Source: Candidatus Peregrinibacteria bacterium (lineage in GTDB: Bacteria; Patescibacteriota; Gracilibacteria; UBA1369; LOWO2-01-FULL-3). From it: 64,000 nt of DNA. The stretch lies in assembly GCA_030688025.1 (NCBI GenBank), contig JAUYJL010000009.1:1503-65502 (forward strand), read 5' to 3'. The notes under the pieces are model-generated. The model was not told the DNA's origin. It searched no databases and worked only from the letters and a program-made list of their open reading frames with translations. Shown here piece by piece: positions 2 to 61,084 of this stretch (position 1 is its first letter; each line of letters opens with the position of its first letter). The position numbers and the translations under genes are program-made.

Positions 2-3000
2 TCGCAAGTTCCGGCAAAAGAAAAAAGAGCAACTGCGCTAAGACTGCAGGGCTACATACAGCTATTAAATCAATATGCATCTATGCAGGGAAGGCTTCTT
101 TCGATAGCCGCGACATACGATTTGATGGGGACAAGGCCGGAAAAGAAACCGGAAGACACAGAGAAAAGATCATGGGAAACCGTAGTGGCAGAGGTAAGGC
201 AGGAGGCTGAAAACTCAAACAATGAAGCGAAGATAGTGGCCTCATTTCTAGATATAAAAGGCTACGAAGGGCAGGATATAAATCAGGCATCTTTGTCACG
301 CCTAACGCTCACATTAATTCAAAAAGAAAACGCAGGTTTGGAAGCAAAATATAAGGGAGTCATGGATAATGTTTCAAATGATTACGGGACTTTGGGAAAC
401 ATAATGGATCAATTTGAAAAAGCTCAAGCTGATCCGGATTGGGCGGAAGAACATGGGACAAAACTTGTAAGAATATTCAATCAGGGATCAGAAGCTTATG
501 CAAAAATGATACCTTCGATAGAGGTCGCCAGAGGAAGATTTAAAGAGATGAAATCAGATTTATCTTTAGCTCTTTTTAGCATTCAACATGGGGACAGTCC
601 GCTATTAAAACTGCATCCACAATTAAGAGATGTATACGCGATGGTATTGGAAAATGCGATAAAAAGTGTGGATCAAGTTTTGGATAATCCAAATTCTCCA
701 ATTTCAACACAACAACTCGAAAAATTAAAATTAGCTCAAAGAAATTTCGAAAAAGCAAAAGAAGATTTCTTGAATGGAGTATTAAAAAACATAGCCGTAT
801 TCACGATAATCATGGCGACATCAATAATGGGTGGAATTGCAGGATCATATTTAATTACAGGAGTGCTCAGGACATCATCGATTTTCCTAGTGCCAATAGG
901 GACATCAGCAGGAGGAGTTATCGGATCAAGAATTGGAATGTCGTTAACAAATGCGACGGGGCTTAGTAATTTCGAAAATATTTGGGATCCAAAACAGATG
1001 GGTAAAGATTTCGTTTACGGATATGGCCTTTCTCTAGGAGCTTTAATGACGGCAAAAGGAGCGATAGGCGCGCTGAAGGTTGCCAGCCATTCCAGAAATG
1101 CAAGAGTCGCAACTGGGGCAGCAAGAATGTTAAATACAATCCAGAAAGCAAAAGCATTAACATCACCATTTGAACTTCATAATGTAAGAACATCATTGGC
1201 AAAATTTGGAGCCAAAGTTGGAGAAGAATTTGCGGAAGAAACAATAGAGGAAGGGGTGGGACAAATTGGGCAAAGAATAAATAATCCTTATTTGGAATTC
1301 TTTGTCAGCGTTATAAATTCATCGGACGGAATGAATGTAAAACTAAATATGGCAGGAGTGAATACCAAGAAAGTTGGACTATCCACTGAGGGAAATAAGC
1401 TTACATATACAACAAAAACCCCACTGGAATTTATCGCAAATCTAAAAGCTCAATTCGCAGGAAAAAAAGGATCCTCTTTTGACGCAAAAATTAATCCCGA
1501 TGGAACAATCGGAATTTCAATTTACGGAAAAACTTTACACCAAAGTATTGCGACACTAACCATCCATCCATCGACAAAAGTCGCAACAGACAGCAAAGCG
1601 GTCGAAGCTAAGTCTAGCCGTAAACAAGGCCGAGCGAGGAATCTTGCCGGAAAAATCAGCAATTCAGAAATAGGAGAAACAGCGATGGAAATTATCGATG
1701 AACTTTTTGGAGAAACTGTGAAAAAATCAAAAACTGCATTCTTGAAAACAGTCGCGAAATTCAAGACAATCGGAGTTTATTTAAAAACTAATGCCAAAGA
1801 ATTAGCAACAATTTTTGATGCGAAATTTAAGGAGCAAGGAGTAGCTTTCGGAATGTCCGGAACTCAGGTTTTGCAGATACTTTATGAAACAGTCGCGAAA
1901 TTTACAAAGAAAAAAGGCACGGTATCTTTATACACAGAAGTAGCAAAGCTTAATGACGGTGCAGAACTGGTCCATATTATTGACGATATTCGGTCTTTGT
2001 ATGGAAAAGATGTAAAAGCTTTTAACAGATTTTCTTCTTTGGTTGCGGGGATTAATCCGAAGTATTTGGGCTTTGTGTTATCCTTTATTGAATCGGGACG
2101 TCCGATATATGAAAATAATATTCCTATGCTTGAGGCGTATGTTCAATTTCTTGCAGGACGTACGGCTGTTGATTCTGGAGATTACGAAAATCGTTCAAGG
2201 ATAAATATTACTGCTGAAGATATTCGCTATCTTATTTCAGCCAAGGAAGTTTATGGTGATAATTTGGAAATGTTTAAGGTTTTTTTGGAGGTTTCCAGTA
2301 AGTACGGAGGCATTAAAGAGCTTTATATAGTGAGAGTTGCATATAAAGAAAATACAGAAATGTTTCTTTCGTTCGCCAAAATAATTAAAAACCATGGTGT
2401 TAATGTGGCTAGGAAACTTGCTTCTGATGGAATGCTTGTTTTCGGAAACGATATAGAAATATTCCGCGAATATGTAAGGATTATTTCCATGAGTGGTCAG
2501 AGCATAGAGAATGCTTATCGCAATATAGGTGTTCTTTCTCTAGCACTTAAGCTTCATTCGAGCCTTAATAATGTTCCTTTCTCTCTAAATTACGACCATG
2601 CTCTTTTTGACATATTGCATTCCGGATATAAGTTAATTGGTGATGAACATGCTTTTATTGAGGAATATCTTGTTTTTCGTGAAAAGCATAAAGGGGAACA
2701 GAGGGAGGAGGCAATTTTGAAAAGCTATCTTAAGACAAGAGTCTTTTCTGACAGGGGCTGGGATTTGGGGAAGATTTATTCTGATCTCAAAAAGCTTTTT
2801 CCAGAATATGATCTTTCTGGCGGCATTACCGAGGATAATTGGCAGTTTGTTCTTGTAGCTTACTGTCATGTGGACGAGATGAATGAGGCATCGGAATTCG
2901 ATAATCAAGTTCAGGCACTCATGGATTCCTCGAAAAATTTGATTCTTGAGCGTTTAATTGGGTTGAGGGATCGGGTGCTCGCCAAAGGTTGGGAGGGATT

Positions 3001-6000
3001 GACTCCTCTGGAAGCGAACTTGCTTACTTTTTTGCATGGTGTTCCAAATTATAAGATGATTGACTCTACGGTCAAATTTATCTCGAATCTTAATCCTTCT
3101 GAAGCGGGACATGCGGATTCGTTTAAGACTATCAGGGAAAAATCACAATCTCTTCTTCGTAAATTTGCCCAGAGGGACAGGACTAATCAGGGGAAAAATA
3201 TTAATTATACTCATGCTGACATTGCTTCATTTTACGAAAAGTTTGGGGTAATAAGATGCGACACGAACTTGCTTCTATCCACTATGAGTACATTTGATGC
3301 CCTTCAGGTAGACAGGGAAAATTACGCATTAATGCAGTCTGGAATTATACAGGGAATAACGTCGCTTATTGCGATTGCTTCCGGCAATGTTCAAACTCAT
3401 ATGCCTCGTATTCAATCAATGATGGATAACCTTGCGGTTAAAATTTCGGGGACAGATGATGTTGCGCAACAAAGGGCTATTCTTCAGGAATGTAATACTC
3501 AAATTACGCAGATGCTAAGCAGTTTCTTCGAACAAGAAATGGGATTAAGAAACCTTCCTCCTGTTACGGCGGAAATGATGGAAAAGATTACTCCGTTTAT
3601 AACTTATCTTACAAATATCGCTAAGGTAAGTCAGGAAAAGCGACTAATCCTTTCGTTTTTCATTTCTCTTCAAATTTTTGGGAAGTGGGACGCATTTAAA
3701 CAAGGAGAGGAGATAGATTTATCTACTCATTTTTCAGATGATAATGTGGCTCAACTACAGGCTTATCTGTCAAAAAGAACGGCATATGATATTTTTGCCG
3801 GGTTTGATCAGTCATTTTTTGCGAAGCTTAATGAATCAACTGAAGCTGTCATGGTTGGGGAGAGTGGAGGTATTGTTGGCACACTTGGAGAGATAGATCG
3901 TCATTCGGCTGACTTAAAAGATCCTGATAATTTTAGCGAAACAGAGCGTCATTTATTTGCTGTCGTTCAGAGGTTTGGACCTAAAAAGGTTGGGAAAGCT
4001 CTTTCTATGCGCTTTAAAGATGCCAGTTATTCTGATGAAGTTATAGAGGCTCTTGGGCATATTGATAATGAAAAAGAGACTTTGCCAACATTACAAAAAG
4101 TTGCTCGTATTTTTGGATCTCTTTTGAAATTTCAGGAGACTATTGAGGCGGCAGATATTGATGGGCATGTTCGTCGGCTTGAAAATGCACTTACTCCATC
4201 TTCTCAGGTTATTGCTGTTTTTCAGAAAATAGATGTAGAGATGAGTGGTAATTCCGGGGCTAAACCGATTAGTGATGATATTGAATATCTTGAATCTATT
4301 CTCAATAAAAAGCGGAGTGAGATTACGGAGGAAGAATATAATACTGCAAAGGGGTATTTGGATGGAGTGAGGAAAACTACGATGGAGCTTTATGTTGTTA
4401 AGGATACAATAACAAAGGAGTTTTCATTGCTTGACGAAGCGAGTAAAAAAACAAGTGAATTGAGTGATATATTTAAGTCGAGGCTGAGTACTTTCCGTAA
4501 GATTCTTGTAGTTGAGGCTGGTGATAAGGCTATAACTTTACGTAGCACTATGACCGGCAACCTTAATGATGTTATTGCCCATATTCGCCAGTGCTTGGGA
4601 TGTAAGGAAAAGGAGGTAAATAATGACACTAATCTTACTTTTGGTGATAGAAATCGATTTTTTATTGTTACTCGTGAGTTCAGTATGAATCCATCTCAAA
4701 GTTTATCTGATGAACTTGTTACCGTACTAGAGACAAAAGAAGAGAATGGCGAAAAAAAACTTTCTTTTGTCATGGATAATGTTTACGGAGCTCGTTCCCC
4801 TGATATTCTTGTAACGAATGTTTTGGCTGTTTTGAGAAAATTGAAGTCAATTAGAAATGTGGCAGGTTCAAGATCAATAGATATATTTGTTACAGATGCA
4901 GCTCTTAATAGTTGCGGATTGACTCTTCAACATTTGCAGGAAAAAATTCAAAAAGAATTTGGAAAAGCTTTGTTAAGTGAGACAATAAAGGCTGTCACAG
5001 TTGCTCCATCGGCAAGCGGGGATGGTCACTATGAGATTGGTGGTGTATTTAATGGAAGAGTATCGGCAGTTACTGGTTTTGACGGAAAAGCTGAGGGGGT
5101 CACCGGTAATATTAGAGGAATTGCTATTTCCTTACCGACAGAGGGGAAGGTGGAACCGACGACTAATGTAGAGGGTGGGGAGGTGGTTTCGAAAGCTGAA
5201 ATTCCTGTTGATGTGTCTGATCAATTTTTAGATCTTGATCTTCTAAGAAAAGATTATGCTAGATATTTTTCAGGTGATTTTGAGGCTGAAGTCGCGGTGC
5301 CTTATCGTGCAAAAATGGCTCAGCTTATTGAAATAAAAAATAAGGCAAAAAATTTATCTCCTGTATTTCGAGACAAGGTTAATGCTTATGTTGATGGGAA
5401 AATCAAATCTTTAAATGATGAATTACAGCGTGGCATTTCAAAAGGTGATAGAAGAAGAATTGATGTGGCATTAAAGAAAGTTGATTCTTACAAGGAAGTC
5501 GATCGATTGTTCACTTCGCATGAATCTTCTTCAGGTATTCGGTCGGAAATAAATAAATTACCTGAGCCTGCTAAAAGATATTTAGAAAAACACTTGGCGG
5601 AATCTGAAAGGAAATCTAGCATTCATCCTAGTTCGATAAGTCTTTCTATAACTGAAAGCTTGGTTCAATATGCGACACAGGATCCCGTTTTCTTTGCGTA
5701 TGCTATTGATAAAATTGGACATTTGGAAATGTATCCTGCTCTTTTGGATTCATTAAAAGATTACAAACAAAAAGCTGAAGAATTGGATTCTGTTCTTCGA
5801 GATGCAGTTGAGAAAAAGAAAATTCTAGAAAAATATCCTAGTTTCGATCAGGAAAGCAATTTTTTTAGTGCTCTTAAAGATTTTCAGGAAATTCCTGCGA
5901 AACTTAAAGAAACCAAAACTTATTCAGAAGCTGAGGAATTATTTAGATCAAACTCTTTACCATTGGTGAAGACGGATGCTTATGGTTCAGGGCATTATAT

Positions 6001-7225
6001 GGATGCTTACAATAGTAGGATCTCTCTCAAGCTTGAAAATATATCTAGATTTGATTCTGAAATCTCTGCCAGGGTGAGTGCCCGTGATTTGCCTGAAGTA
6101 TTAAGTATTTTTAATAAACTTGTTGTTCAAGAACAGCGTCGTTATAGTTATAGAAAAGAACCTATTTCTTTCGATGAATTTAAAAATCGTTTTTCAAATT
6201 ACGAAGCATCTGTTAAGAAATTCAGTTCTTTAGATGTTTTTAAAGTTGAGGGAGGCAGGGAGGTGTTTGCGAAAAATAGTCGTGAATCATTAGAGAATTT
6301 CTTGATACAGGAAATTTTGGAAGAAGGTTTTGATCCTAAAGAGGTTGAATCTTCGGTTTTGGCGGAATATGAAAAAGTAAAAAGTTCTGCTTCTGTAACA
6401 ATTAATGTTCATTCAGATGCACTTATTAAAATTTACGAAGAAGGGGAATACAAAGTTTATGAGGAGCTTACGGATAGACATAGAGATGATAAAAACGAGG
6501 TATATTTGAAGGCGCGAAAAGAGGCTGATAAAAAAATTAGCCACGAACGACGTTTTGTGGTTGGAGCCTTGGCAAGCAAAAATGGATACGATGAAGTTAT
6601 TGGTCCTGCTCCTTTTTATGGACATGGCGTGATTACCTTAAAGGCGGATCCTATAAAGGGACGTGTTTCTTTTTTTGAAGGTGATTCGATGTCTACAAGC
6701 ACTGATACCAGAGGAGCTGAGGTTATGCCCAGATGGTTTTTTAGAAAATTGGCAAATGTTGAATCACGTAGGCTTGATTTCGATTCCGCTGTGTTCTCTA
6801 AGGCTTTGATGGAAAGTTATCTTCATCGTAGGAATTTGACTCATATTCATACGTTGTACATTGAAGCGCATGTGCTTGCACCTGTATTGGCAAAAGATTT
6901 TGAATCTGTTACTTATGGGATTTCTGAGACTGCGCCATCTCAGAAATATGAGCAGTTGAGAGTTTTAGCTGAACAAGAGGGGGTTGTTGAGCCAGGAGGT
7001 GAACTTGAACCTGCAAGGATGGAGGCTTTGGCGAAAAAGCATCAAATTGTTTTGGCAGAGAGGCGTGTTCAGCTAGAGGATTCTGCGAGAAAGATGAAGG
7101 AGTCTAGACCTGATGCACCTGCTCTTCAAATTTTGCAATTTACTGGGGATATCAGGACGGTTGATCTTTCTGGTATGGCTGCCGGATCTGCAAAAGAATC
7201 ATTAGAAGGATATAGACGGTTTTAG
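2..7225 (+). CDS. Giant (>2,400 aa) membrane-anchored protein of unknown function; 5' end truncated by the window edge
   Basis: The reading frame is open from nt 2 with no stop before the first listed ATG at 83, so the gene probably starts upstream. Hydrophobic Gly/Ile-rich segments at about aa 235-340 look like transmembrane helices. The rest is a long, mostly helical, Lys/Glu-rich sequence with no catalytic motif I recognise. Confidence 0.75.
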   Translation, partial: SQVPAKEKRATALRLQGYIQLLNQYASMQGRLLSIAATYDLMGTRPEKKPEDTEKRSWETVVAEVRQEAENSNNEAKIVASFLDIKGYEGQDINQASLSRLTLTLIQKENAGLEAKYKGVMDNVSNDYGTLGNIMDQFEKAQADPDWAEEHGTKLVRIFNQGSEAYAKMIPSIEVARGRFKEMKSDLSLALFSIQHGDSPLLKLHPQLRDVYAMVLENAIKSVDQVLDNPNSPISTQQLEKLKLAQRNFEKAKEDFLNGVLKNIAVFTIIMATSIMGGIAGSYLITGVLRTSSIFLVPIGTSAGGVIGSRIGMSLTNATGLSNFENIWDPKQMGKDFVYGYGLSLGALMTAKGAIGALKVASHSRNARVATGAARMLNTIQKAKALTSPFELHNVRTSLAKFGAKVGEEFAEETIEEGVGQIGQRINNPYLEFFVSVINSSDGMNVKLNMAGVNTKKVGLSTEGNKLTYTTKTPLEFIANLKAQFAGKKGSSFDAKINPDGTIGISIYGKTLHQSIATLTIHPSTKVATDSKAVEAKSSRKQGRARNLAGKISNSEIGETAMEIIDELFGETVKKSKTAFLKTVAKFKTIGVYLKTNAKELATIFDAKFKEQGVAFGMSGTQVLQILYETVAKFTKKKGTVSLYTEVAKLNDGAELVHIIDDIRSLYGKDVKAFNRFSSLVAGINPKYLGFVLSFIESGRPIYENNIPMLEAYVQFLAGRTAVDSGDYENRSRINITAEDIRYLISAKEVYGDNLEMFKVFLEVSSKYGGIKELYIVRVAYKENTEMFLSFAKIIKNHGVNVARKLASDGMLVFGNDIEIFREYVRIISMSGQSIENAYRNIGVLSLALKLHSSLNNVPFSLNYDHALFDILHSGYKLIGDEHAFIEEYLVFREKHKGEQREEAILKSYLKTRVFSDRGWDLGKIYSDLKKLFPEYDLSGGITEDNWQFVLVAYCHVDEMNEASEFDNQVQALMDSSKNLILERLIGLRDRVLAKGWEGLTPLEANLLTFLHGVPNYKMIDSTVKFISNLNPSEAGHADSFKTIREKSQSLLRKFAQRDRTNQGKNINYTHADIASFYEKFGVIRCDTNLLLSTMSTFDALQVDRENYALMQSGIIQGITSLIAIASGNVQTHMPRIQSMMDNLAVKISGTDDVAQQRAILQECNTQITQMLSSFFEQEMGLRNLPPVTAEMMEKITPFITYLTNIAKVSQEKRLILSFFISLQIFGKWDAFKQGEEIDLSTHFSDDNVAQLQAYLSKRTAYDIFAGFDQSFFAKLNESTEAVMVGESGGIVGTLGEIDRHSADLKDPDNFSETERHLFAVVQRFGPKKVGKALSMRFKDASYSDEVIEALGHIDNEKETLPTLQKVARIFGSLLKFQETIEAADIDGHVRRLENALTPSSQVIAVFQKIDVEMSGNSGAKPISDDIEYLESILNKKRSEITEEEYNTAKGYLDGVRKTTMELYVVKDTITKEFSLLDEASKKTSELSDIFKSRLSTFRKILVVEAGDKAITLRSTMTGNLNDVIAHIRQCLGCKEKEVNNDTNLTFGDRNRFFIVTREFSMNPSQSLSDELVTVLETKEENGEKKLSFVMDNVYGARSPDILVTNVLAVLRKLKSIRNVAGSRSIDIFVTDAALNSCGLTLQHLQEKIQKEFGKALLSETIKAVTVAPSASGDGHYEIGGVFNGRVSAVTGFDGKAEGVTGNIRGIAISLPTEGKVEPTTNVEGGEVVSKAEIPVDVSDQFLDLDLLRKDYARYFSGDFEAEVAVPYRAKMAQLIEIKNKAKNLSPVFRDKVNAYVDGKIKSLNDELQRGISKGDRRRIDVALKKVDSYKEVDRLFTSHESSSGIRSEINKLPEPAKRYLEKHLAESERKSSIHPSSISLSITESLVQYATQDPVFFAYAIDKIGHLEMYPALLDSLKDYKQKAEELDSVLRDAVEKKKILEKYPSFDQESNFFSALKDFQEIPAKLKETKTYSEAEELFRSNSLPLVKTDAYGSGHYMDAYNSRISLKLENISRFDSEISARVSARDLPEVLSIFNKLVVQEQRRYSYRKEPISFDEFKNRFSNYEASVKKFSSLDVFKVEGGREVFAKNSRESLENFLIQEILEEGFDPKEVESSVLAEYEKVKSSASVTINVHSDALIKIYEEGEYKVYEELTDRHRDDKNEVYLKARKEADKKISHERRFVVGALASKNGYDEVIGPAPFYGHGVITLKADPIKGRVSFFEGDSMSTSTDTRGAEVMPRWFFRKLANVESRRLDFDSAVFSKALMESYLHRRNLTHIHTLYIEAHVLAPVLAKDFESVTYGISETAPSQKYEQLRVLAEQEGVVEPGGELEPARMEALAKKHQIVLAERRVQLEDSARKMKESRPDAPALQILQFTGDIRTVDLSGMAAGSAKESLEGYRRF

Positions 7226-23073: not shown

Positions 23074-23274
23074 CTACACCAACACTCCCTGTCCACCGAG
23101 TGCATAGTTTCCTCTAACTCGTTTCAAGGAAAACATTTTGTCAAAGAAACCACGTTTTTTGGCATGCAAACCATTCCTCCAGCTACCTCCGGTACCGGGA
23201 ACAAAGATTTTTTTCTGCATTGTAACAGCAGGTTTTTTCACTTTGTGAGTGTCGATTGTTAGTGTGATAAACAT
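23074..23274 (-). CDS. Small basic hypothetical protein (66 aa; start uncertain)
   Basis: ORF only. It lies between lexA and the 446-aa gene on the same strand. No recognisable motif or clear ribosome-binding site. Confidence 0.3.
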   Translation of the reverse strand: MFITLTIDTHKVKKPAVTMQKKIFVPGTGGSWRNGLHAKKRGFFDKMFSLKRVRGNYALGGQGVLV

Positions 23275-23362: not shown

Positions 23363-23977
23363 CTAATATTGCCTAATCATTCCGGTAACAACTCCTTGAA
23401 TAGTCAGAGACTCTTTTGGATAAATATCTTTATAATCCTTGTTTTCAGCTTTTAGATAATATTTTCCATTAGTCCTGACAAGTCTCTTCAAAGTATTCCC
23501 TTCGTCAATCAATGCAACAACGATATCTTCCGCCTTTGGCTCTTTTTTTGTATTAACCAAGACCAAATCTCCCTCAAAAATGCCTGCGTCTATCATGCTG
23601 ATACCTGTAACTTTCAAGAAAAAATAATCAGTATTGTTTTTTGCTAGCTCTTCTCCAACTTTCATCCATCCCTCAACATATTCGTCAGTAACTACAGGTC
23701 CACCAGCAGGAACAAATCCCAAAATCGGCAAACTGAAAGCCCCTTCATCAAGTTTTTCTTTCACGCTATTTAGAAGTCCGATTCCACGAGGCGTATCATC
23801 CTTTTGGATATACCCTTTTTCTTTAAGAGCAGTCAAATGCTTAAGGATACTATTGTCAGAGCTGACCCCGAAATGTTCTCTCATTTCTTTTAAAGTAGGG
23901 GATTTACCGTAAGCCAATTGATATTCTTCGATAAATTTTAGTACGGCCTCCTGTTTTTCTGTTAATACTTGATCCAT
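23363..23977 (-). CDS. lexA: LexA repressor (S24 peptidase)
   Basis: Winged HTH LTEKQEAVLKFIEEYQLAYGKSPTLKEMREHFG. Ala-Gly cleavage site in FVPAGGP. The catalytic Ser is in VTGISMIDAG and the catalytic Lys in GNTLKRLV. The start is set at MDQVL (23977) because the upstream ATG at 24010 would lie inside the promoter/operator. Confidence 0.92.
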   Translation of the reverse strand: MDQVLTEKQEAVLKFIEEYQLAYGKSPTLKEMREHFGVSSDNSILKHLTALKEKGYIQKDDTPRGIGLLNSVKEKLDEGAFSLPILGFVPAGGPVVTDEYVEGWMKVGEELAKNNTDYFFLKVTGISMIDAGIFEGDLVLVNTKKEPKAEDIVVALIDEGNTLKRLVRTNGKYYLKAENKDYKDIYPKESLTIQGVVTGMIRQY

Positions 23978-23993: not shown

Positions 23994-24039
23994 GGTGAGT
24001 ATACGCTCACAGTATAGGTGAGTGCTTACTCACCGTCAA
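23994..24039 (-). promoter_or_regulatory. lexA promoter with two palindromic operators (candidate LexA boxes)
   Basis: The minus strand reads TTGACG-GTGAGTAAGCACTCACC-TATACT-GTGAGCGTATACTCACC. The -35 and -10 hexamers are separated by exactly 17 nt, and that spacer is the palindrome GGTGAGT-N4-ACTCACC (24017-24034). A second palindrome, GGTGAG-N6-CTCAC (23994-24011), abuts the -10. Confidence 0.7.
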
Positions 24040-24072: not shown

Positions 24073-24600
24073 TTATATGTCGAAGATGTTTAAGACGCCA
24101 TATCCAAAAATGCGAGAAATTGGCTTTAAGACAACGAAATCACGATGAGCATTATATATCCTAATAGTCTCATTATATTTCTTCAAATCATTCTTTGCCT
24201 CATCAAAAACGTTAACAATTTCACTTTTTACTTCAAGAAAAACAGTGTCTTTCAAAGCCTCGGGATTTGTTTTTGCAATGTTAAAAATTTTCCCTAAAGT
24301 CCCGGAAATATCGTGTTCATAAACCATCTTGTTCGCACTTGGCACATATTCTTTTGACGCAATGGATCTTTCTGCAATCAATCCCTCTATAAGCACGTCC
24401 TGTCCGCTTACATGAGCCATAAAAGATTCTATGAAAAGAGGAATCAAATCATGTCTTTTTCTTATTTTTGCATCTACTGTGTCCCATTGGTTTTCGGCAG
24501 ACAGTCTCAAATATTTTAAGTGTCTCAATCCCACGATAACCCACAACGCCAACATAAAAATCACCGCGCCAACTATGATGAGAATATTTACAAGATCCAT
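24073..24600 (-). CDS. lemA: LemA family protein
   Basis: N-terminal TM helix followed by RHLKYLRLSAENQWDTVDAKIRKRHDLIPLFIE, which is typical of LemA. Confidence 0.8.
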   Translation of the reverse strand: MDLVNILIIVGAVIFMLALWVIVGLRHLKYLRLSAENQWDTVDAKIRKRHDLIPLFIESFMAHVSGQDVLIEGLIAERSIASKEYVPSANKMVYEHDISGTLGKIFNIAKTNPEALKDTVFLEVKSEIVNVFDEAKNDLKKYNETIRIYNAHRDFVVLKPISRIFGYGVLNIFDI

Positions 24601-35604: not shown

Positions 35605-36795
35605 CTATGTCAAAATCTCCCCCAACCTTCCTTGTTTCACCGCTTCTTTCACCTCCATTCCAATTCTTTCTCCAAAACTTACACTCTCGCCGTAAAGATA
35701 GGTTGTGCAAGGCGTAAACCTAGTCCCTGGTGATCCCGGAATTCTCATTGAAACATCAAAAACTACAAATTCCTCTTTTCCCTCATACGCTGCGATGGCT
35801 CCTTGTAGAGCAAAAGCACCGATGATTCCGGGAGCGACTTCATTCTTTAAAGTTGCCACAAATTTTTCTCCAGCCTCAAAAGCTTTTTCAAGAATTGATT
35901 CTTTTGTAGTACAAGCCACGTGTCCGGTTTCAATCATCGAAGGCGCGTATCCGGCATTCAAAAGTTCCATCTGTGTATCTGCATTTAATCTCAAAAATCC
36001 ATCCAAAGAAGTCTGTCTTCGTAAGTCTGTTCCCATTATTTCAAGTTCACCATTAAGAGGGGAGTAGAAAAAATTGAAATTTATTTGCGCACCGATAATA
36101 AATTCTTCGATCACAGAATTATCCAAATCTTTCTGATTTATTTTGCCTTCGTTTATCATTTTTTCGCTGACAGTAAAATAAGAATCAGTATTTGTAATAA
36201 CGAAAAAAGCCCTTTCATATCCCCTTATCGCCTCATTCACTTTTACGATCAATGGTCCACCTTTGTCAGTTACAAAATGTGTGTCCAATATTTTTTTAGT
36301 ATCTTCGTAACCCAATTTTTCACCACCTTGTCTGACAATTTTCGGCATTCTTATTCCGGCTTTTTCAAGAAGATAATATTGGTTTTTTGGTTGATCTCTC
36401 TCTTCGAGTTTTACTCCTTCTCTAAGCCCAAAAACCGGCACTTTAAATTGGTCTTCAAAGTCTTTAAAATCTTTGAAATAAACCCAGAAATATCGATTAT
36501 GAATGAAAATCGTATTCATCGCACGAAGCTTTTCTTGAACATCTTCATTGATAATATCTGAAAATTTATCTACCAAAATGATTTCATCAATACATCCACG
36601 TCCATCTTCACGGGTTTTATAATATTTAGAATATGTCTTGTCTCTGCCGTTTTGGCAAACTGCGACAGTTTTAAATCCATGTTTTTTTGCGCCACTGCAA
36701 ACATCGAGTGCGCTGTGTCCGCCAAGAACACCAATCGTAATATTTTTTAAATCGTAAGTCTTCAAAATCTCCAAAATATCTTTTTGTCCGATCAT
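35605..36795 (-). CDS. purP: Archaeal-type FAICAR synthetase PurP paralog (ATP-grasp, formate-dependent)
   Basis: ITIGVLGGHSALDVCSGAKKHGFKTVAVC N-terminus and the ATP-grasp C-terminal half. It is paralogous to the neighbouring gene. Confidence 0.75.
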   Translation of the reverse strand: MIGQKDILEILKTYDLKNITIGVLGGHSALDVCSGAKKHGFKTVAVCQNGRDKTYSKYYKTREDGRGCIDEIILVDKFSDIINEDVQEKLRAMNTIFIHNRYFWVYFKDFKDFEDQFKVPVFGLREGVKLEERDQPKNQYYLLEKAGIRMPKIVRQGGEKLGYEDTKKILDTHFVTDKGGPLIVKVNEAIRGYERAFFVITNTDSYFTVSEKMINEGKINQKDLDNSVIEEFIIGAQINFNFFYSPLNGELEIMGTDLRRQTSLDGFLRLNADTQMELLNAGYAPSMIETGHVACTTKESILEKAFEAGEKFVATLKNEVAPGIIGAFALQGAIAAYEGKEEFVVFDVSMRIPGSPGTRFTPCTTYLYGESVSFGERIGMEVKEAVKQGRLGEILT

Positions 36796-36828
36796 TGCTG
36801 TAAAAATTAAAATATAATTTTGGCTTTC

Positions 36829-37854
36829 TTATCCAAGAACCTCCGAAAGCCTATCCTGCTCTATCGCCATTTTAATATCTCTTGCCAGTCTGCGTCCAGT
36901 GCTCATTGGTTCGTTGTATTTTAGCCAAGTGTAAGGAGAACCGTTTATGTACGGATTTGTCCCGGCCACAATCCTTGCTGAAATTTCAAAAACTGAATAA
37001 TTAAGTTCAGGATCGATGATGCCTTCAAGACAGAAAGGCCCAAAAAGTCCTCCTGTAACCAACTTTTTCGAAGCATCAACTACGCGTTGTCCCATCTCAA
37101 AAATCTCCGGTAAAAGTGATTCTCTGACCACCAAAGGTACATTCCCTGTGATTGTATAAGTCGTACGAATATCTACATCAACCTGATCTTTAGCCGCAAT
37201 TCGTCCGATAGAATCGGCATTTGACTCGTATCTTTTATCAAATCCCATCACCTCAAGTTCGCCGGTAAGTGGGCTGTAAAAATAGTGTGTATAAACAGGA
37301 ACTCCGACTACATATTCCTGAATTGCATATTTTTCGTGCCCTTCTTTTTCTCTATACCCCTCATATCTTTCATAAAATTCTTTTGCGGAATTTGCAATAA
37401 AATATCCTTTTCCGCCGTGCGCTCCATGAAATTTTACGATAACAGCTCTATCTATTTCCTCAGGAGTTTTGAAAATTTTCGGAAGCATGATGTTCGCATC
37501 AAGAAGCCATTGTCTCTCTTTTGTCCTATCTGATTCCCATTCCAAAATCGCCTTTGTTCCATAGTGCATGGCCTTGACCTCCATCATTTTGCTAGGCCCT
37601 ATATAAGCTACAAAAGAACCATGAGGAACGATAATTGCATTCTGTTTTATAAGCTCAGGCTCTATGCTGAAATAATCTTTAAATGAATCTACGGTGATAA
37701 TCTGATCCGCGACCCCGTAAGACAAATAAGGCTTTTCTTTGCCTTTTTCACAGATACATATAGTCTCGAATCCTTCATCCTTTGCCCCTTTTAGAATCTG
37801 AAGAGCAGTGTGGCTTCCAAGTGTCGCTATTTTGTAATCTTTGATGTTTCCCAT
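36829..37854 (-). CDS. purP: Archaeal-type FAICAR synthetase PurP (ATP-grasp, formate-dependent)
   Basis: KIATLGSHTALQILKGAKDEGFETICIC..., IVPHGSF, and FCLEGI...FEISARIVAGTN match the PurP (DUF1246/DUF1297) family as I remember it. Confidence 0.8.
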   Translation of the reverse strand: MGNIKDYKIATLGSHTALQILKGAKDEGFETICICEKGKEKPYLSYGVADQIITVDSFKDYFSIEPELIKQNAIIVPHGSFVAYIGPSKMMEVKAMHYGTKAILEWESDRTKERQWLLDANIMLPKIFKTPEEIDRAVIVKFHGAHGGKGYFIANSAKEFYERYEGYREKEGHEKYAIQEYVVGVPVYTHYFYSPLTGELEVMGFDKRYESNADSIGRIAAKDQVDVDIRTTYTITGNVPLVVRESLLPEIFEMGQRVVDASKKLVTGGLFGPFCLEGIIDPELNYSVFEISARIVAGTNPYINGSPYTWLKYNEPMSTGRRLARDIKMAIEQDRLSEVLG

Positions 37855-38824: not shown

Positions 38825-39649
38825 TCAAAGCGGACTTTTAATATTTCGAATACTCGACGCGGAAACCTGAGTATATCTTTGCGTGGTGCGGAGATTTTGA
38901 TGTCCCAAAAGAGTTTGTATGTAACGGATATCGGTGCCATTTTCGAGCAAATGAGTGGCAAAACTATGGCGAAGGCTGTGAAAAGTCGCGTCAGCAAAAA
39001 CGCCAGACTTTAAAAGTGCATTGCTAAAGATTTTTTGCGCAGTACGAGTGGTAAGTCGTCCACCTCGTTCACTTTCAAAAAGGAAATCATTTTTATCTCT
39101 TCCTGCAACAAAATCTATCAAAGGAGAAATCAACTTTTCCGGCAAAATGGTAATTCTGTCTTTATTGCCTTTTGCCTGTATTACGTAAATGATTTTCTCA
39201 GAAATATTCAAATCTTTAACTTTGATTTTTACAACTTCACTAACCCGAAGCCCAGCTCCATAAGCCAAAGAAATCATAAGTCGGTGTTTTAAGTTTGTTA
39301 TGGAATCAATAACTTTCAAAATGTCGTTTTTCGCCAAAACAACAGGAAGTTTCAGGGGTCGACGTGCAAATTTTATATCAATTTTGCAAAAGCATTTCAT
39401 GACATCTCTATAAAAAAACTTAATGGCATTGAGATAAAGATTCACAGTCTCAGGCGCATAATTTTTCAAATGTTTTTGTTTCAAAAAATCTTTAATAATT
39501 TCAACATCGGGAGAAGAAATATCTCTACCGACGAAGTTGAAAAACTCCCTCAAACAAGCCAAATAAGACTTCCTAGTCTGCGGGCTGTAATTTCTGATGA
39601 TGATTTCTCTTTCGGTCTGATTTATGTAAAAAGAATGTTCCATATACAC
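38825..39649 (-). CDS. Integron-integrase-like tyrosine recombinase lacking the IntI-specific additional domain
   Basis: RRPLKLPVVLAKNDI, LAYGAGLRVSEVVKIKVKDL, AKGNKDRITILPEKL, HSLRHSFATHLLENGTDIRYIQTLLGHQNLRTTQRYTQV and a C-terminal IKSPL. It is divergent from the cassette array with the attI-like site about 110 bp upstream. Confidence 0.9.
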   Translation of the reverse strand: MYMEHSFYINQTEREIIIRNYSPQTRKSYLACLREFFNFVGRDISSPDVEIIKDFLKQKHLKNYAPETVNLYLNAIKFFYRDVMKCFCKIDIKFARRPLKLPVVLAKNDILKVIDSITNLKHRLMISLAYGAGLRVSEVVKIKVKDLNISEKIIYVIQAKGNKDRITILPEKLISPLIDFVAGRDKNDFLFESERGGRLTTRTAQKIFSNALLKSGVFADATFHSLRHSFATHLLENGTDIRYIQTLLGHQNLRTTQRYTQVSASSIRNIKSPL

Positions 39650-42267: not shown

Positions 42268-43182
42268 ATGAAATTTCAATTAACGGAACCGAACAAACAA
42301 TATTCAAATGCTGAACTCATAGAAGATATTCAAAGAGTTGCAGGTGAGCTCGGCAAAAATTCTGTATCCCAACGAGAATATGATCGATTGGGCAATTTTT
42401 CGTATCAGACATTCAAAAAGAGGTTCGGTTCCTGGAAAAGTGCATTAAAAGAAGCTGGGCTTGAACAAAGCAAGCGTCCTTGGGGTGGTGATTTAACAGA
42501 AACACGCATACCCAAAGAACAGCTTATTGCAGATATGAAAAGAGTTGCAGGCGAACTGGAAAAACAAGCTATCACAATTGCTGATTATGATAAGCATGGA
42601 AAGTTTGGCTCTTCGGCAATCTGTAAAAGATTTGGTGGCTGGAACAAGGCAAAAGAAGCAGCAAATCTGAAAATCGGAAGAGTTTATAATTCAACAGACG
42701 AAGACTATTTTGAAAACATAGCTGATGTTTGGGAACATCTTGGTCGCCAACCACGATATCAAGAAATGACAGCACCACTTTCAAAATTAAATATATCATC
42801 ATACGAGCGAAAATTTGGAACATGGCGAAATGCTCTCGAAAAATTTGTTGAATATATAAACTCTAAAGACGACGCCGAAGAGCCGCAAGAAGCAATCGAG
42901 CCAAAGAAATCAGCAATTGTTCCTAAAAAAGAAGAGAAACCAATAAAAAAGCAGGTGGTTAAAAAAAGAACCAACCGCATTGCAAATCTACGACAGAGAT
43001 TTAGAGTAATGAAAAGAGATGGTTTCAAATGTGTATTGTGTGGAAGTTCGCCAGCAACTCAAGTAGGCTGTGAATTGCATATAGATCACATCATACCTTG
43101 GAGTAAAGGTGGTGAAACTGTAGAGGAAAATTTAAGGACGCTTTGTTCAAGCTGTAATTTAGGAAGATCAAATAAAGAATAA
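42268..43182 (+). CDS. Cassette 4: HNH endonuclease with three N-terminal ~55-aa repeats
   Basis: C-terminal CVLCGS...HIDHIIPWSKGGETVEENLRTLCSSCN is an HNH motif. The N-terminus has three copies of ...(Q/D)YD(R/K)...(F/Y)...KRFGSWK(S/N)AL.EAGL-type repeats (homing-endonuclease-associated repeat). Confidence 0.85.
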   Translation: MKFQLTEPNKQYSNAELIEDIQRVAGELGKNSVSQREYDRLGNFSYQTFKKRFGSWKSALKEAGLEQSKRPWGGDLTETRIPKEQLIADMKRVAGELEKQAITIADYDKHGKFGSSAICKRFGGWNKAKEAANLKIGRVYNSTDEDYFENIADVWEHLGRQPRYQEMTAPLSKLNISSYERKFGTWRNALEKFVEYINSKDDAEEPQEAIEPKKSAIVPKKEEKPIKKQVVKKRTNRIANLRQRFRVMKRDGFKCVLCGSSPATQVGCELHIDHIIPWSKGGETVEENLRTLCSSCNLGRSNKE

Positions 43183-43204
43183 TGAACCGCCCCAAAAGCA
43201 CATC

Positions 43205-43282
43205 ATATAACAAGGCATATACGGCTACGCTACGCTTCGCCCATATTGCTATCGCAACATCGTATATGCCGAAACGTTAGCC
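43205..43282 (+). other. attC 4 (R'' ATATAAC ... R' GTTAGCC)
   Basis: L'' GGCATATACGG pairs with L' CGTATATGCC. The R'-side spacer is GAAAC. Length is 78 bp. Confidence 0.85.
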
Positions 43283-43326
43283 GAAATTGAAAGTAATTTT
43301 TTTATTCCTTTAACCAAAATCAAAAC

Positions 43327-43605
43327 ATGGAAAAGTATTTCATTTTAGCAATAACATTTGCATATAGCATCGGCGGTTTAGTCACATTCGCAGGATTTTT
43401 TCCAACAATGAAGGATTTATGGAAAGGAAAACCAAGTGCAAATGTGCACACCTACATAATTTGGTCGATAACAACCTTCCTTACATCTTTATATGCAATA
43501 TTTGTTGTCAAAGACTTGGTTTTCAGTTTGGTTATCAACCTACAATTAGCGGCATGTTTAATAGTTTTGATTTTGAGATTAAGGCTAAAATTAAAAAGAA
43601 CATAA
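43327..43605 (+). CDS. Cassette 5: small 3-TM membrane protein (92 aa; SemiSWEET/PQ-loop-like topology)
   Basis: Three hydrophobic helices in 92 aa. The family assignment is only a guess from topology. Confidence 0.45.
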   Translation: MEKYFILAITFAYSIGGLVTFAGFFPTMKDLWKGKPSANVHTYIIWSITTFLTSLYAIFVVKDLVFSLVINLQLAACLIVLILRLRLKLKRT

Positions 43606-43665
43606 AAAAATTACTTTCAACTCAAGGGGACGCTGCGCTTTCGCTCCCTTCAGTCGCTCACCCTC

Positions 43666-43783
43666 GGCTAACACTGAATGTGCGGTTCGCGGCTTGCAGC
43701 CGCTCTCCCATATTCACTGGCGGTGAATCGCTTTGCGATATATTATACCGCCAGTGAACATCGCACATTCAGAAACGTTAGGC
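43666..43783 (+). other. attC 5 (R'' GGCTAAC ... R' GTTAGGC)
   Basis: L'' CTGAATGTGCG pairs with L' CGCACATTCAG, and inner TTCACTGGCGGT pairs with ACCGCCAGTGAA. The R'-side spacer is AAAC. Confidence 0.85.
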
Positions 43784-43873
43784 GAAAGAAGAAAAAGCAT
43801 TTGTATTTTACAGTCGACTTGACAAGTCGCCAAAAAAAAGTATAAAGTAGAAAACTATTAACACATACTATTT

Positions 43874-44101
43874 ATGGAAAAAATACAATGTCCTGGTTAT
43901 TACTATAAAAATCGTGAAATGCAGCCAGCCTTTCCTGATGATAAAGTTGATGCATTAGTCCAAGAAGTAGATGGCGAACTCATAGTAGCATGCCCATTTT
44001 TAAGACAACCTACTGAGGCCAGCCCATTGTTATGCGGAAGAATACTTCAGATAACGCATACTGACGAAGTAGCGGCTGGCTGCCCCTATTCAACAAAGTA
44101 A
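43874..44101 (+). CDS. Cassette 6: small Cys-containing hypothetical protein (75 aa)
   Basis: Single ORF in cassette 43778-44239; no family recognised. Confidence 0.45.
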   Translation: MEKIQCPGYYYKNREMQPAFPDDKVDALVQEVDGELIVACPFLRQPTEASPLLCGRILQITHTDEVAAGCPYSTK

Positions 44102-44119
44102 ACCGCTTTTTCTTCCATC

Positions 44120-44245
44120 GCCTAACAATGAATAACTGGTTCACTCCTTCACTCCGTTCAGTCGTTCTCCCAAATTTGGCGGCGGTATGTCGCTCCGCTC
44201 CAAATTTTACCGCCACCACACTTCAGTTATTCATGGACGTTAGCT
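44120..44245 (+). other. attC 6 (R'' GCCTAAC ... R' GTTAGCT)
   Basis: L'' ATGAATAACTGG pairs with L' CAGTTATTCAT, and inner TTTGGCGGCGGT pairs with ACCGCCACCACA (imperfect). The R'-side spacer is GGAC. Confidence 0.85.
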
Positions 44246-44474
44246 GAAATATTCCTTTTCTTTTCTGGGCTATCGCCCAATTGTTTTAAAAAATTTTCAA
44301 ATTTCTTTTTCTTTTTTATAAGGGGAAATATGGAGTTTTCTCCGCTCTGCTACGAAAACACTTGTTTTGTAGAGGGGAATAGCGGTGTTTCCTCCGCTTC
44401 GCTCCAGAAACTCTTTATATATTAAGGGAAAAATACTATACTACCATTAACCCGCCTTTGAACATAAAAACCCT

Positions 44475-46535
44475 ATGGAAATTAATTTCAAAAGTAAATT
44501 ATTTGAACTACTAAAAAGAGACCATCGTCTTTGGAATGAAGAGACCAAGGAATTCAATGAAACTCTTTTAAAAGATTTAGTGGATAAGCTGGATGAAAAT
44601 ATCCTCGAGCTACTTTTTAATAACGCGGAAACAAAAGAACGATTTTTCATAAAAATAAAGGATGTTTATGTATTAAAGCAAAACGAGTTAAAATTTTTCA
44701 TTGATGAAAATAAATTAGACAATTCATTTACCCAGCTTGCCAATAAAATTGGCCTCACCATAGATGACAAAAAAGACGAAAGGGTTGTTTTGAACTGGCC
44801 ATTTAAGGATTGTGTATTAGAGGGCGGCATGACAAAAGAAGACGCTGTTGATGTTTATTATAAATTTGATAAAAAGACCGGCGAATGGAAAGAGGAGGCC
44901 GCAAAGAGAAAAGAAATTTTCTTTAATGAAGTTTTAGCTCGCGATGAAATAGACCGGCTTGAAGATCCAAAAACTCTTTATAAGTGGCGAAGATTTACTG
45001 CTGAAAATTCTGAAAATGGAGAAGAGTTAAAAGAAATAAAGAGAGACGAAAAAGGGATTATAAAGGAAAATTTTGTAATCAAAGGCAATAATCTACTTTC
45101 ATTACATAGCTTAAAATCTCAATTTGAAGGGAAAATAAAACTTATCTACATAGATCCCCCATTTAACACTGGTAAGGATGAATTCAAGTATAATGACAAC
45201 TTTAATCATTCTGCATGGCTAACTTTCATGAAAAACAGGCTAGCGGTAGCAAAAGAATTATTAAGAGATGACGGCGTAATTTTTGTACACATTGGCAATG
45301 AGGAAGCGGCATATATGCAAGTTTTATTAGATGAAATTTTTAACAGGGAAAATTATTTGAATCATATTACAATGAGTACTAATGCGGCATCTGGATTTAA
45401 AGCTACCAGTGCTAAAATATTTTCAACAGCAAACCATATTTTTGTTTATGCCAAAAAAGCAGATAAGGGGTATTTGAATAAGTTATATACAAGAAAAGAA
45501 TATGATGATAGTTACGGATATTATTTACTAAATCCAAGCGAACCATATTCAAGATGGAAGTACAAAAAAATTATTGAAATACTCGCCGAAGAAAATGGAT
45601 TTAAAGATGTGAAATCTTTTCAGAAAAGTTTCGCCAAAGAAATTATACTGGAAAAAATAAAAAAATTTGCACATCTAAATAAGGAAAGAGTATTCCGGAC
45701 TGCAGCATTAGGCGGAGGCGCACTTACGAAAAGAAAAGTCACTGTAGAAAAATCCAAAAAAGAAAAAGGGGTTGTTCTCCAACATCCAAATGAAGACGTG
45801 AAAGGTTTTTATATTTTAAATGGAGAACAGATCGTTTTTTGGTCAAATACCTATAAAGAAATTGATGGAGATATTGTGCCAGCAACATCCCTCACAGATG
45901 TATGGACTGACATCGGTTTTACTGGAATCGCAAATGAGGGTGGTATAACCTTAAAAAATGGCAAAAAACCTGAACCTCTCCTTAAAAGGATAATTGAATT
46001 AGGATCAAGCGAAAATGATATAGTACTTGATTTCTTCGCTGGCAGTGGAACCACTTGCGCGGTGGCCCATAAAATGGGACGACAGTGGATTGCCATCGAA
46101 CAACTTGATTATTCTGATAATAACCCTGAGGAAAGAATGAAAGGGGTCATTGCTGGCGATCCTACTGGAATTTCCAAAACAATAAATTGGAAGGGTGGAG
46201 GTGACTTTATTTACACGCAACTGGCAAAATGGAATGAAGAGGCAAAAGAAAAAATTTCTGAAGCAAAATCTTATGATGAGTTAGTGAAGCTATTTTCATT
46301 GCTCTATGAAAAATATTTCCTAAATTATAATGTGCGAGCAAAAGATTTTAAAGAAAGCATAATAGAAAACAATGAATTCAAAAAACTTTCACTCGAAAGA
46401 CAAAAGGAAATATTTGGAAAAATGCTCGATCTAAACCAGATGTACATAAATTTCAGTGAAAGGAATGATAAAAAATATGAGCTAACATCAAGAGATATAG
46501 AACTCAGTGAAAAATTTTATAATGTGAAAAATTAA
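44475..46535 (+). CDS. mod: Cassette 7: Type III restriction-modification methyltransferase (Mod)
   Basis: LIYIDPPFNTGKDEF (motif IV, DPPF) precedes DFFAGSGTTCAVAHKMGRQWIAIE (motif I), a beta-class order typical of Type III Mod. The res gene follows immediately. Confidence 0.88.
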   Translation: MEINFKSKLFELLKRDHRLWNEETKEFNETLLKDLVDKLDENILELLFNNAETKERFFIKIKDVYVLKQNELKFFIDENKLDNSFTQLANKIGLTIDDKKDERVVLNWPFKDCVLEGGMTKEDAVDVYYKFDKKTGEWKEEAAKRKEIFFNEVLARDEIDRLEDPKTLYKWRRFTAENSENGEELKEIKRDEKGIIKENFVIKGNNLLSLHSLKSQFEGKIKLIYIDPPFNTGKDEFKYNDNFNHSAWLTFMKNRLAVAKELLRDDGVIFVHIGNEEAAYMQVLLDEIFNRENYLNHITMSTNAASGFKATSAKIFSTANHIFVYAKKADKGYLNKLYTRKEYDDSYGYYLLNPSEPYSRWKYKKIIEILAEENGFKDVKSFQKSFAKEIILEKIKKFAHLNKERVFRTAALGGGALTKRKVTVEKSKKEKGVVLQHPNEDVKGFYILNGEQIVFWSNTYKEIDGDIVPATSLTDVWTDIGFTGIANEGGITLKNGKKPEPLLKRIIELGSSENDIVLDFFAGSGTTCAVAHKMGRQWIAIEQLDYSDNNPEERMKGVIAGDPTGISKTINWKGGGDFIYTQLAKWNEEAKEKISEAKSYDELVKLFSLLYEKYFLNYNVRAKDFKESIIENNEFKKLSLERQKEIFGKMLDLNQMYINFSERNDKKYELTSRDIELSEKFYNVKN

Positions 46536-46537
46536 GT

Positions 46538-49321: not shown

Positions 49322-49324
49322 GAA

Positions 49325-49379
49325 GTTTTCGGTCGGGGCAATTCACCCCTTTAGTTCCCCTCTTGCCCCTCCCTCAAAC
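49325..49379. repeat. Conserved-loop hairpin H1 (degenerate copy)
   Basis: GTTTTCGGTCGGGGCAA - TTCACCCCTTTAGTTCCCCTC - TTGCCCCTCCCTCAAAC, with 13/17 stem pairs. Confidence 0.6.
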
Positions 49380-49390
49380 AAGAAATAGGT

Positions 49391-49445
49391 GTTTTGGGTG
49401 GCGGGCATTCACCCCTTTAATTCCCCTCTGCCCACCACCCAAAAC
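49391..49445. repeat. Conserved-loop hairpin H2
   Basis: GTTTTGGGTGGCGGGCA - TTCACCCCTTTAATTCCCCTC - TGCCCACCACCCAAAAC, with 16/17 stem pairs. Confidence 0.75.
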
Positions 49446-49509
49446 GGAAAAAGAAATTTGAAAATTTTTAAAACAACCGACTATCGACGGAAAAGAAAAG
49501 GAATACATC

Positions 49510-49636
49510 AGCTAACACTGCGTATGCGGTTACGGCTTGCTCCGTACCTCCGCAAGCCTCCACCCATATTTGCCAGTGGTAAGCACTTCGTGCAATTATA
49601 CCACTGGCAAACATCGCATACGCAGGGACGTTATGT
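49510..49636 (+). other. attC 7 (R'' AGCTAAC ... R' GTTATGT)
   Basis: L'' TGCGTATGCG pairs with L' CGCATACGCA, and inner TTTGCCAGTGGT pairs perfectly with ACCACTGGCAAA. The R'-side spacer is GGGAC. Confidence 0.88.
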
Positions 49637-49666
49637 GAAATAGACTTTACTACCTAAGTGCAAAAT

Positions 49667-50437: not shown

Positions 50438-50449
50438 AGTCTACATCAC

Positions 50450-51598: not shown

Positions 51599-51627
51599 GA
51601 GATTTATTCATTTAACATAATCTGATA

Positions 51628-54176: not shown

Positions 54177-54182
54177 TAAGGT

Positions 54183-56255: not shown

Positions 56256-56256
56256 T

Positions 56257-60121: not shown

Positions 60122-60139
60122 GGTGAGCGTACGCTCACC
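60122..60139. promoter_or_regulatory. Third copy of the lexA-type operator (perfect palindrome GGTGAGC-GTAC-GCTCACC)
   Basis: Perfect 18-bp palindrome matching GGTGAG-N6-CTCACC, 130 nt upstream of the HNH gene ATG at 60269. Confidence 0.6.
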
Positions 60140-60268: not shown

Positions 60269-61084
60269 ATGGACAAATCAGAATTACACAAAAAATTTGT
60301 AAAATTAGGACAAGAAAAATCCCACATTTCTCATCAATTATTGGCACTTTTGCCGGAAATTTTTGAAAAATCCGTTTTTCTTGATTATGGCTGTGGCTCG
60401 ATTTATGAATATGCGGCGCGTTTTGGAGACGGCTTGAGCGCGGGCGTTGTCGACAAAGTTTTAAAATTGAAAGAAAATTTGTCCGAATGTCCTTCTTTGT
60501 TCGAAACTGTGGCAACCCAAGGAGTGCATAAGGTAGCCATAATCGCGAGTTTGGCGAATAGCAAAACTGAAAAAGAGTTGGTTGAGGTGGTGAAAAATAT
60601 GAGCAAAGACGCGGTTCAAGAATATTCGAAAGTAAAACGCGGGAAAAAGGTGAGAATTATGACAAAAATTGAAATGGACGAAGAAATGGAGTTTTTGTTT
60701 TTGAAGCTAAAGAAAAAACTAAAAACCGTCTCCAACAAGGAAACGATGAAACGGCTTTTACAAGCCATGGATAGACAACTTTTCCCCGAGGAAAAAGTGA
60801 GTGGTGACGGCGGAGTTGTCAAAAAAATCACCAGATATATTCCGAAAGCCAAAAAACGTGAATTGTATCAGGAAACTTTGGGGCGATGTGCTTATGATGG
60901 CTGTAATAGGCCAATCGACACCTTGCACCATACTGATGGCTACAGCAAAACAAAAAATCACAACAATGTCGTCGGACTTTGCGAAATTCATCATCAGTTT
61001 GCTCATAACGGCATAGATAGGCCACTTGTGAAAATGGATTTGCTTTACAGAAGGTACAGGCAAAGGGCACTCGTGGCGGGGTAG
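60269..61084 (+). CDS. HNH endonuclease (DUF222-like architecture), putatively LexA-controlled
   Basis: C-terminal CAYDGCNRPIDTLHHTDGYSKTKNHNNVVGLCEIHHQFAH is an HNH motif. The start is set at MDKSELHKK; the listed ORF runs from 60185. Confidence 0.75.
   Translation: MDKSELHKKFVKLGQEKSHISHQLLALLPEIFEKSVFLDYGCGSIYEYAARFGDGLSAGVVDKVLKLKENLSECPSLFETVATQGVHKVAIIASLANSKTEKELVEVVKNMSKDAVQEYSKVKRGKKVRIMTKIEMDEEMEFLFLKLKKKLKTVSNKETMKRLLQAMDRQLFPEEKVSGDGGVVKKITRYIPKAKKRELYQETLGRCAYDGCNRPIDTLHHTDGYSKTKNHNNVVGLCEIHHQFAHNGIDRPLVKMDLLYRRYRQRALVAG

Follow-up and report, generated by a model that had tools for sequence, protein, structure and literature searches.

A GTGAG-N6-CTCAC palindrome as the probable LexA operator of the Peregrinibacteria/Peribacteria lineage

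The window analyzed here, which is the whole stretch of 64,000 nucleotides (G+C content of 36%), contains a lexA gene whose ATG is at position 23977 (Table 1). The encoded protein has an N-terminal DNA-binding domain (PF01726) and a C-terminal S24 peptidase domain (PF00717), scores 161.7 bits against the NCBIfam equivalog TIGR00498 (cutoff, 110.95), and matches a deposited LexA (P0001) of a Candidatus Peregrinibacteria MAG with 100% identity. In the NCBI taxonomy, Peregrinibacteriota stand outside the Patescibacteria group. Residues A91-G92, S127, and K164 of the window protein, which align to A84-G85, S119, and K156 of E. coli LexA, are invariant in 16 homologues. The sequence marks this gene as a canonical lexA whose product has kept both its cleavage site and its catalytic dyad. 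In the recognition helix, L45 and K46 align to E44 and E45 of E. coli LexA, and the presence of leucine and lysine in place of the two glutamates fits an altered DNA specificity. A longer, 215-aa ORF with a GTG start at 24010 was considered and dropped in favor of the ATG at 23977, which is where the deposited protein and all of the homologues begin.

The gene order in this part of the window is ftsW-murG-lemA-lexA. lemA (24073 to 24600, minus strand) adjoins lexA upstream on the same strand, an arrangement that is found in 53 loci (among L001 to L074). On the other side of lexA there is a small ORF (Table 1) whose position is kept in 28 loci, 26 of which are among the 80 lexA loci described below. 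NCBIfam and PHROGs contain no match to it, and neither do the precomputed Pfam results. It is possibly cotranscribed with lexA, is a putative member of the SOS system, and may be a lexA-operon gene, such as one for a small effector induced by damage.

Read on the minus strand, window positions 24039 to 23994 are TTGACG / GTGAGTAAGCACTCACC / TATACT / GTGAGCGTATACTCACC. A promoter scan identifies TTGACG-17 nt-TATACT (24039 to 24011, minus strand) as a sigma-70-type promoter that agrees with the consensus at 10 of 12 positions. Operator 1 is an 18-bp palindrome, GGTGAGT-AAGC-ACTCACC, with arms of 7 bp (GGTGAGT/ACTCACC). It fills the 17-nt spacer of the lexA promoter, and its base 1 is the final G of the -35 hexamer. 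Operator 2 begins at the final T of the -10 hexamer, overlaps the predicted transcription start, and ends 17 nt short of the lexA ATG. The sequence-only reading had claimed this anatomy for the segment (hexamers, 17-nt spacing, and palindromes), and the claim matches exactly both on re-reading and in the promoter scan. The accompanying claim that a palindrome overlaps lexA's own promoter also stands, with operator 1 lying in the -35/-10 spacer and operator 2 abutting the -10 hexamer.

Table 1. Coordinates of the lexA and HNH-nuclease features in the window
Feature	Position	Strand	Basis or remark
-35 hexamer TTGACG, lexA promoter	24034..24039	-	Promoter scan
Operator 1, GGTGAGTAAGCACTCACC (lexA strand)	24017..24034	.	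Perfect GGTGAG-N6-CTCACC
-10 hexamer TATACT	24011..24016	-	Promoter scan
Operator 2, TGTGAGCGTATACTCACC	23994..24011	.	One mismatch (TGTGAG...CTCACC)
lexA CDS (204 aa + stop)	23363..23977	-	Pfam LexA_DNA_bind + Peptidase_S24; NCBIfam TIGR00498
Small basic 66-aa ORF	23074..23274	-	~90 nt downstream of lexA; called gene in public contig
Third operator-type site, GGTGAGCGTACGCTCACC	60122..60139	.	Perfect 18-bp palindrome upstream of HNH-nuclease gene
HNH-nuclease gene (271 aa)	60269..61084	+	HNH zinc-finger motif

With two or fewer mismatches allowed, GGTGAG-N6-CTCACC has 4 matches in the 64-kb window, a count that 0 of 100 shuffles reached; the expected number is 0.71. Two of these 4 matches are perfect at 12 of 12 positions. 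The E. coli-type box, CTGT-N8-ACAG, is absent near lexA when one mismatch or fewer is allowed (among the matches listed, the closest is ~7 kb away), and it is not enriched in the window, with 10 counted versus 12.2 expected. The Gram-positive-type box, GAAC-N4-GTTC, is likewise absent near lexA at one mismatch or fewer, with the closest of the matches listed ~1.5 kb away, and is not enriched in the window (12 counted versus 22.2 expected). The GGTGAG half-site is unlike the boxes of both groups, as had been proposed from the letters of the sequence, and neither type of box occurs near lexA at this stringency.

For a comparison with related organisms, we used 80 lexA loci, which are species representatives labelled Peregrinibacteria, Peribacteria, or Gracilibacteria and were obtained by searching a genome collection with a LexA alignment. 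They represent one LexA family, picked via two conserved peptides, and their LexA proteins are 59 to 97% identical to the window protein. In this comparison of lexA promoters from related MAGs, which the sequence-only reading had proposed as a check, the motif is kept: TTGAC-GGTGAG-N6-CTCACC-TAnnnT is present with two or fewer mismatches over 20 scored positions in 78 of 81 lexA promoters (window included), and 63 of these promoters match the full module perfectly. Of the other three promoters, that of L026 is truncated by a contig end, that of L044 has 86 nt of upstream sequence only, and the third has 4 mismatches. Across the 78 promoters, the operator arms carry 1.5 to 2.0 bits of information per position and the six spacer positions carry 0.2 to 0.8 bits, with 60 distinct spacers represented. 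TTGAC is invariant or nearly so and the TAnnnT positions are invariant. Because the -35 and -10 elements vary as little as the arms do, part of the conservation of the module is conservation of the promoter itself.

A second site lies 1 to 6 nt past the -10 hexamer in 58 of the 78 lexA promoters. One of its arms is nearly always imperfect, often CTTAC, and its spacer is more constrained, staying near CGTACA. In ~457 kb of lexA flanking sequence, every match with one mismatch or fewer is at a lexA operator except for three (L056, L066, and L071). These three related loci share a conserved element, GGTGAG-N6-CCGCACC, ~90 nt upstream of operator 1 (position 2856 in L056, 2860 in L066, and 2854 in L071). 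In L031, L040, and L050, there are 60 to 90 nt of extra sequence between the operator-bearing promoter and the lexA start, which is usually at a distance of 20 to 40 nt.

The LexA recognition helix, SDNS(I/V)LKH(L/V), is almost invariant in this family. The only lexA promoter with a symmetric change in the operator arms (GGTGAT/ATCACC) is that of L041, and the LexA encoded at this locus has the most divergent helix, SDNGVIKHL. The coincidence of a changed arm and a changed helix would link LexA to the site, and as a single case it is only suggestive.

Inverted repeats of this kind could also act as nucleic acid structure, either as a hairpin or cruciform in the DNA or as a hairpin in the 5' untranslated region of the mRNA, rather than as a protein-binding site. 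Both lexA sites are able to form stems of 6 to 7 bp, the lexA mRNA would carry operator 2 at its 5' end, and 17 terminator-like sites on unrelated contigs are among the 122 metagenome matches listed in the scan described below, so that sequences of this class may work as hairpins in other settings. However, operator 1 is upstream of the transcription start, no T-run follows operator 1 or operator 2 at lexA, and functionally linked genes carry the sequence as well. An Rfam scan of the window found a single tRNA only and no known RNA at lexA or at the 60122 operator locus. Over 78 lineages, the arms are fixed without compensatory variation while the spacer drifts freely, which argues for base-specific recognition by a dimeric protein and not for a hairpin. 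We consider a purely structural role very improbable and regard the palindrome as a protein-binding site.

Five Peregrinibacteria recA genes were chosen by protein homology and by the length of their contigs, independently of the motif; several of them are from genomes in the lexA set. In all five, a perfect operator occupies the promoter register seen at lexA. In four of the five, the operator is 31 to 38 nt before the called recA ATG. In the fifth, L242, it is 54 nt inside the called recA ORF, whose product is 379 aa compared with 349 to 362 aa for the other four, and the true start of this recA is presumably downstream of the called one. recX is the next gene after recA in 5 of 5 loci. A tblastn search of the 80 lexA loci with E. 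coli RecA showed that recA is not linked to lexA in these loci.

We also scanned metagenome contigs with the bare palindrome class GGTGAGYRTAYRCTCACC, which covers one spacer class and includes no promoter or gene information. Since such a scan selects for the motif, the recA genes described above serve as the reverse test, and three of their five spacers fall outside this pattern. The scan returned at least 122 sites in at least 120 loci. At least 52 of these matches, among those listed, lie between TTGAC and TAnnnT, in the register seen at lexA. Apart from the terminator-like sites mentioned above, the other matches listed comprise 28 sites on contigs with a G+C content of 50% or more and 25 sites on contigs below 50%. 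Based on the first downstream ORF at the 52 promoter-register sites among the matches listed, the most frequent product is RecA (at least 18). These RecA proteins are 69 to 90% identical to one another and so come from different organisms. RadA, recognizable by its zinc ribbon, KaiC-type ATPase, and KNRFG motif, follows at least 7 sites, and LexA follows at least 6. There are at least 4 Bro-N proteins and at least 3 members of a RhuM/Fic-type cluster. At least one site each precedes a Y-family (IMS) polymerase, RmuC, a C5 DNA methylase, a separate Fic protein, a PD-(D/E)XK nuclease, and a relative of the window HNH protein, the last of which is a putative assignment, made from N-terminal similarity by eye. 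A motif search with inspection of the downstream genes had been suggested on the basis of the window sequence, and it leads to recA, radA, lexA, and a Y-family polymerase gene among the matches listed.

The accessory genes behind the module (Bro-N, RhuM/Fic, Fic, PD-(D/E)XK, C5-methylase, and others) are at loci L182, L187, L132, L154, L156, L158, L153, L196, and L184. Two of these contigs, L182 and L187, each carry two modules 1 to 5 kb apart. The identity of these downstream genes suggests that toxin-like or mobile-element genes in these bacteria may be wired to the SOS signal.

Relaxed searches of 716 kb of metagenome loci and of 313 kb of Peregrinibacteria-like contigs found no additional promoter-type sites, and the regulon therefore looks small, with few genes per genome. 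As a specificity control only, we searched 2.9 million viral contigs for the full promoter-operator module and obtained 0 matches. The bare palindrome class has 30 matches in the viral contigs, and these are confined to a few phage families; some resemble terminator hairpins and most are in unrelated sequence. That the resemblance to an operator arose by chance inside a strong promoter is hardly credible given this control, the excess of matches in the window, the retention of the module in 78 of 81 lexA promoters, and its presence at 5 of 5 recA promoters. The promoter hexamers are likewise conserved, as such an origin would allow, and nothing further speaks for it.

The third operator-type site in the window is upstream of the HNH-nuclease gene (Table 1), which makes this gene a candidate member of the regulon. 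The invariant residues of the HNH family are C207, C212, H220, H221, C238, H241, H242, and H246, and homologues of the window protein are seen only in Peregrinibacteria-type MAGs. The operator is present in 4 of 7 HNH orthologue loci (L082, L083, L084, and L088) and also in L175, at varying positions; L082 and L083 have identical upstream sequence and count as one instance. In four related cassettes of the window's subfamily, the 60122 to 60139 site is the best-conserved upstream block. It is not in promoter-spacer register: the proximal promoter-like element follows ~85 nt downstream, an arrangement in which a repressor would not obviously block the promoter.

Within window positions 59900 to 61084, the HNH gene is preceded by a conserved cassette of ~370 nt. 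Its elements are a boundary hairpin, TTTTCCTCGGGGAAAA (59903 to 59919); TTGACG at 60009, in the distal part; the LexA-type site; the block AAAATGTGTTAAAATGGCTTAT..CTGCGGTTTT, which is conserved; and, proximally, TTGATT-17-TATCTT. The cassette has no match in Rfam. The neighborhoods of the HNH gene differ between genomes, and since orthologues are found in unrelated neighborhoods, the cassette may be mobile or often relocated. A reading of the HNH protein as a Ref-like, RecA-dependent nuclease was not adopted, as the sequence matches are below threshold, and a search of the PDB with a confident AlphaFold model of the protein gave no match at an E value of ≤0.001. In M. tuberculosis, REP13E12, which encodes a protein with DUF222 and HNH domains, is LexA regulated, with a LexA-type site upstream of the HNH gene, and occurs in several genomic contexts. 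The resemblance of the window HNH gene to REP13E12 is a lead only, and Pfam reports no DUF222 for the window protein.

Because the same promoter-palindrome unit precedes recA, radA, and a lesion-bypass polymerase gene in related genomes, the palindrome is very probably a LexA site. We propose with high confidence that GGTGAG-N6-CTCACC (core GTGAG-N6-CTCAC) would serve the Peregrinibacteria/Peribacteria lineage as its SOS box, the operator of LexA, in a classical autoregulatory arrangement. The earlier suggestion that GGTGAG may define the SOS box of this lineage gains strong in silico support from 78 of 81 lexA promoters, 5 of 5 recA promoters, and the presence of a true LexA. Location and regulon content point to LexA as the protein that binds the palindrome, and we infer both repression by the bound protein and a response of the system to damage.

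The palindrome could instead be the operator of another dimeric factor that coregulates lexA, recA, and radA, with LexA binding elsewhere or to nothing. Such a factor is conceivable insofar as the binder is identified here through location and regulon content, and non-LexA SOS repressors have a precedent in the Bacteroidetes, which have an SOS repressor that is non-homologous to LexA (PMC8565304). Yet 58 of 78 lineages have two copies of the site with the gene for an intact, canonical LexA directly downstream, and autoregulation of LexA at its own promoter is a near-universal arrangement. In addition, there is no alternative LexA box of the E. coli or Gram-positive type near lexA, the LexA helix is invariant like the half-site, and the one promoter with symmetrically changed arms belongs to a LexA whose helix is changed too. 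We therefore judge a different binder to be unlikely and favor LexA itself.

With LexA as the binder, one LexA dimer would occupy operator 1, which is the whole 17-nt spacer between TTGACG and TATACT, and a second dimer would sit on the imperfect operator 2, reaching from the end of the -10 hexamer across the transcription start. Either dimer would shut out RNA polymerase, so that lexA would repress itself. Upon DNA damage, RecA filaments would be expected to trigger self-cleavage of LexA at Ala91-Gly92 via Ser127 and Lys164. This cleavage would free the promoters of lexA, recA(-recX), radA, the Y-family polymerase gene, and the accessory genes.

The proposed system has much in common with that of E. 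coli, in which lexA encodes a winged-helix LexA with a self-cleaving S24 domain, two palindromic operators overlap the lexA promoter, and recA belongs to the same regulon. In our own comparison of the cores, aligned over 16 bp, the TG and CA dinucleotides coincide (cTGt-N8-aCAg versus gTGag-N6-ctCAc). In contrast, the half-site of E. coli is different, and its helix has E44/E45 where the window protein has L45/K46. Whereas E. coli SOS boxes occupy varied positions, nearly every regulon promoter identified here keeps to a single register, in which the operator takes up the -35/-10 spacer exactly. The E. coli lexA promoter has two boxes, which the imperfect second operator here parallels. The Cheo box (GAAC-N4-GTTC) of Firmicutes and Actinobacteria is also a palindrome recognized by a canonical LexA, and its regulon shares the core of lexA, recA, and a translesion polymerase gene. 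However, it differs in half-site and in spacing (12 to 14 bp versus 16 to 18 bp here), and there is none near lexA.

To our knowledge, the canonical LexA boxes do not include GTGAG-N6-CTCAC. Sanchez-Osuna, Barbe, and Erill reportedly described LexA regulons of Patescibacteria by comparative genomics in 2017; these are reduced-genome candidate phyla, as is the group studied here, and no other study of SOS in such organisms is known to us. According to a later compilation, the experimentally validated LexA proteins of that work are from Collierbacteria (Microgenomates) and from a Parcubacteria bacterium (PMC8565304, Table S2), and in another paper, the 2017 work is cited among cases of direct-repeat motifs (PMC7739468). 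LexA motifs differ from phylum to phylum, and by 2021 the number reported had reached 17 (PMC8565304). GTGAG-N6-CTCAC is not among the example motifs in that publication. In a literature search, we found no paper linking LexA with Peregrinibacteria and no GTGAG-type box; the motifs of PMID 28618189 were outside this comparison. Among papers that contain a GTGAG string together with LexA and "SOS box," none is, by its title, on such a motif. The GTGAG-N6-CTCAC motif is probably unreported so far. On balance, we favor the reading that it would be an undescribed LexA motif for the SOS regulon of a whole lineage, in which a fixed module would drive recA, radA, lexA, Bro-N, Fic/RhuM, PD-(D/E)XK, and HNH genes.

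If this reading is true, toxin-like and mobile-element genes of these episymbionts are tied to DNA damage. Gene regulation in candidate-phyla bacteria, which are not growable alone, is almost uncharted, and a confidently predicted operator that comes with a repressor and the core of a regulon (lexA, recA-recX, radA, and a Y-family polymerase gene) is a rare testable circuit for Peregrinibacteria. The motif would also be one more divergent LexA motif, paired with an invariant helix, SDNSILKH, and as such would be useful for tracing how LexA specificity changes. The promoter-operator module could be used as a marker for damage-inducible genes in metagenomes, Fic/RhuM, Bro-N, and HNH genes among them. 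The current understanding is not overturned by these results, since the SOS system would be as expected with a different box, which is a new sequence in a well-known system.

Several other features of the window deserve mention. A 2380-aa ORF at 83 to 7225 (plus strand) has no Pfam match at an E value of ≤1e-5. There is a tyrosine recombinase gene at 38825 to 39649. A dense defense island extends from 42268 to 57054 and contains an HNH_repeat homing-type nuclease, a type III restriction-modification system (Mod and Res), an EcoRI endonuclease/methylase pair, an AAA_15 ATPase, and an extra methylase with a TdeIII-type endonuclease. Two tandem DUF1246/DUF1297 genes are located at 35605 to 37854 (minus strand), near purH (58232 to 59770). 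We take this pair to belong to the archaeal-type PurP family, which is presumably unusual in a bacterium.
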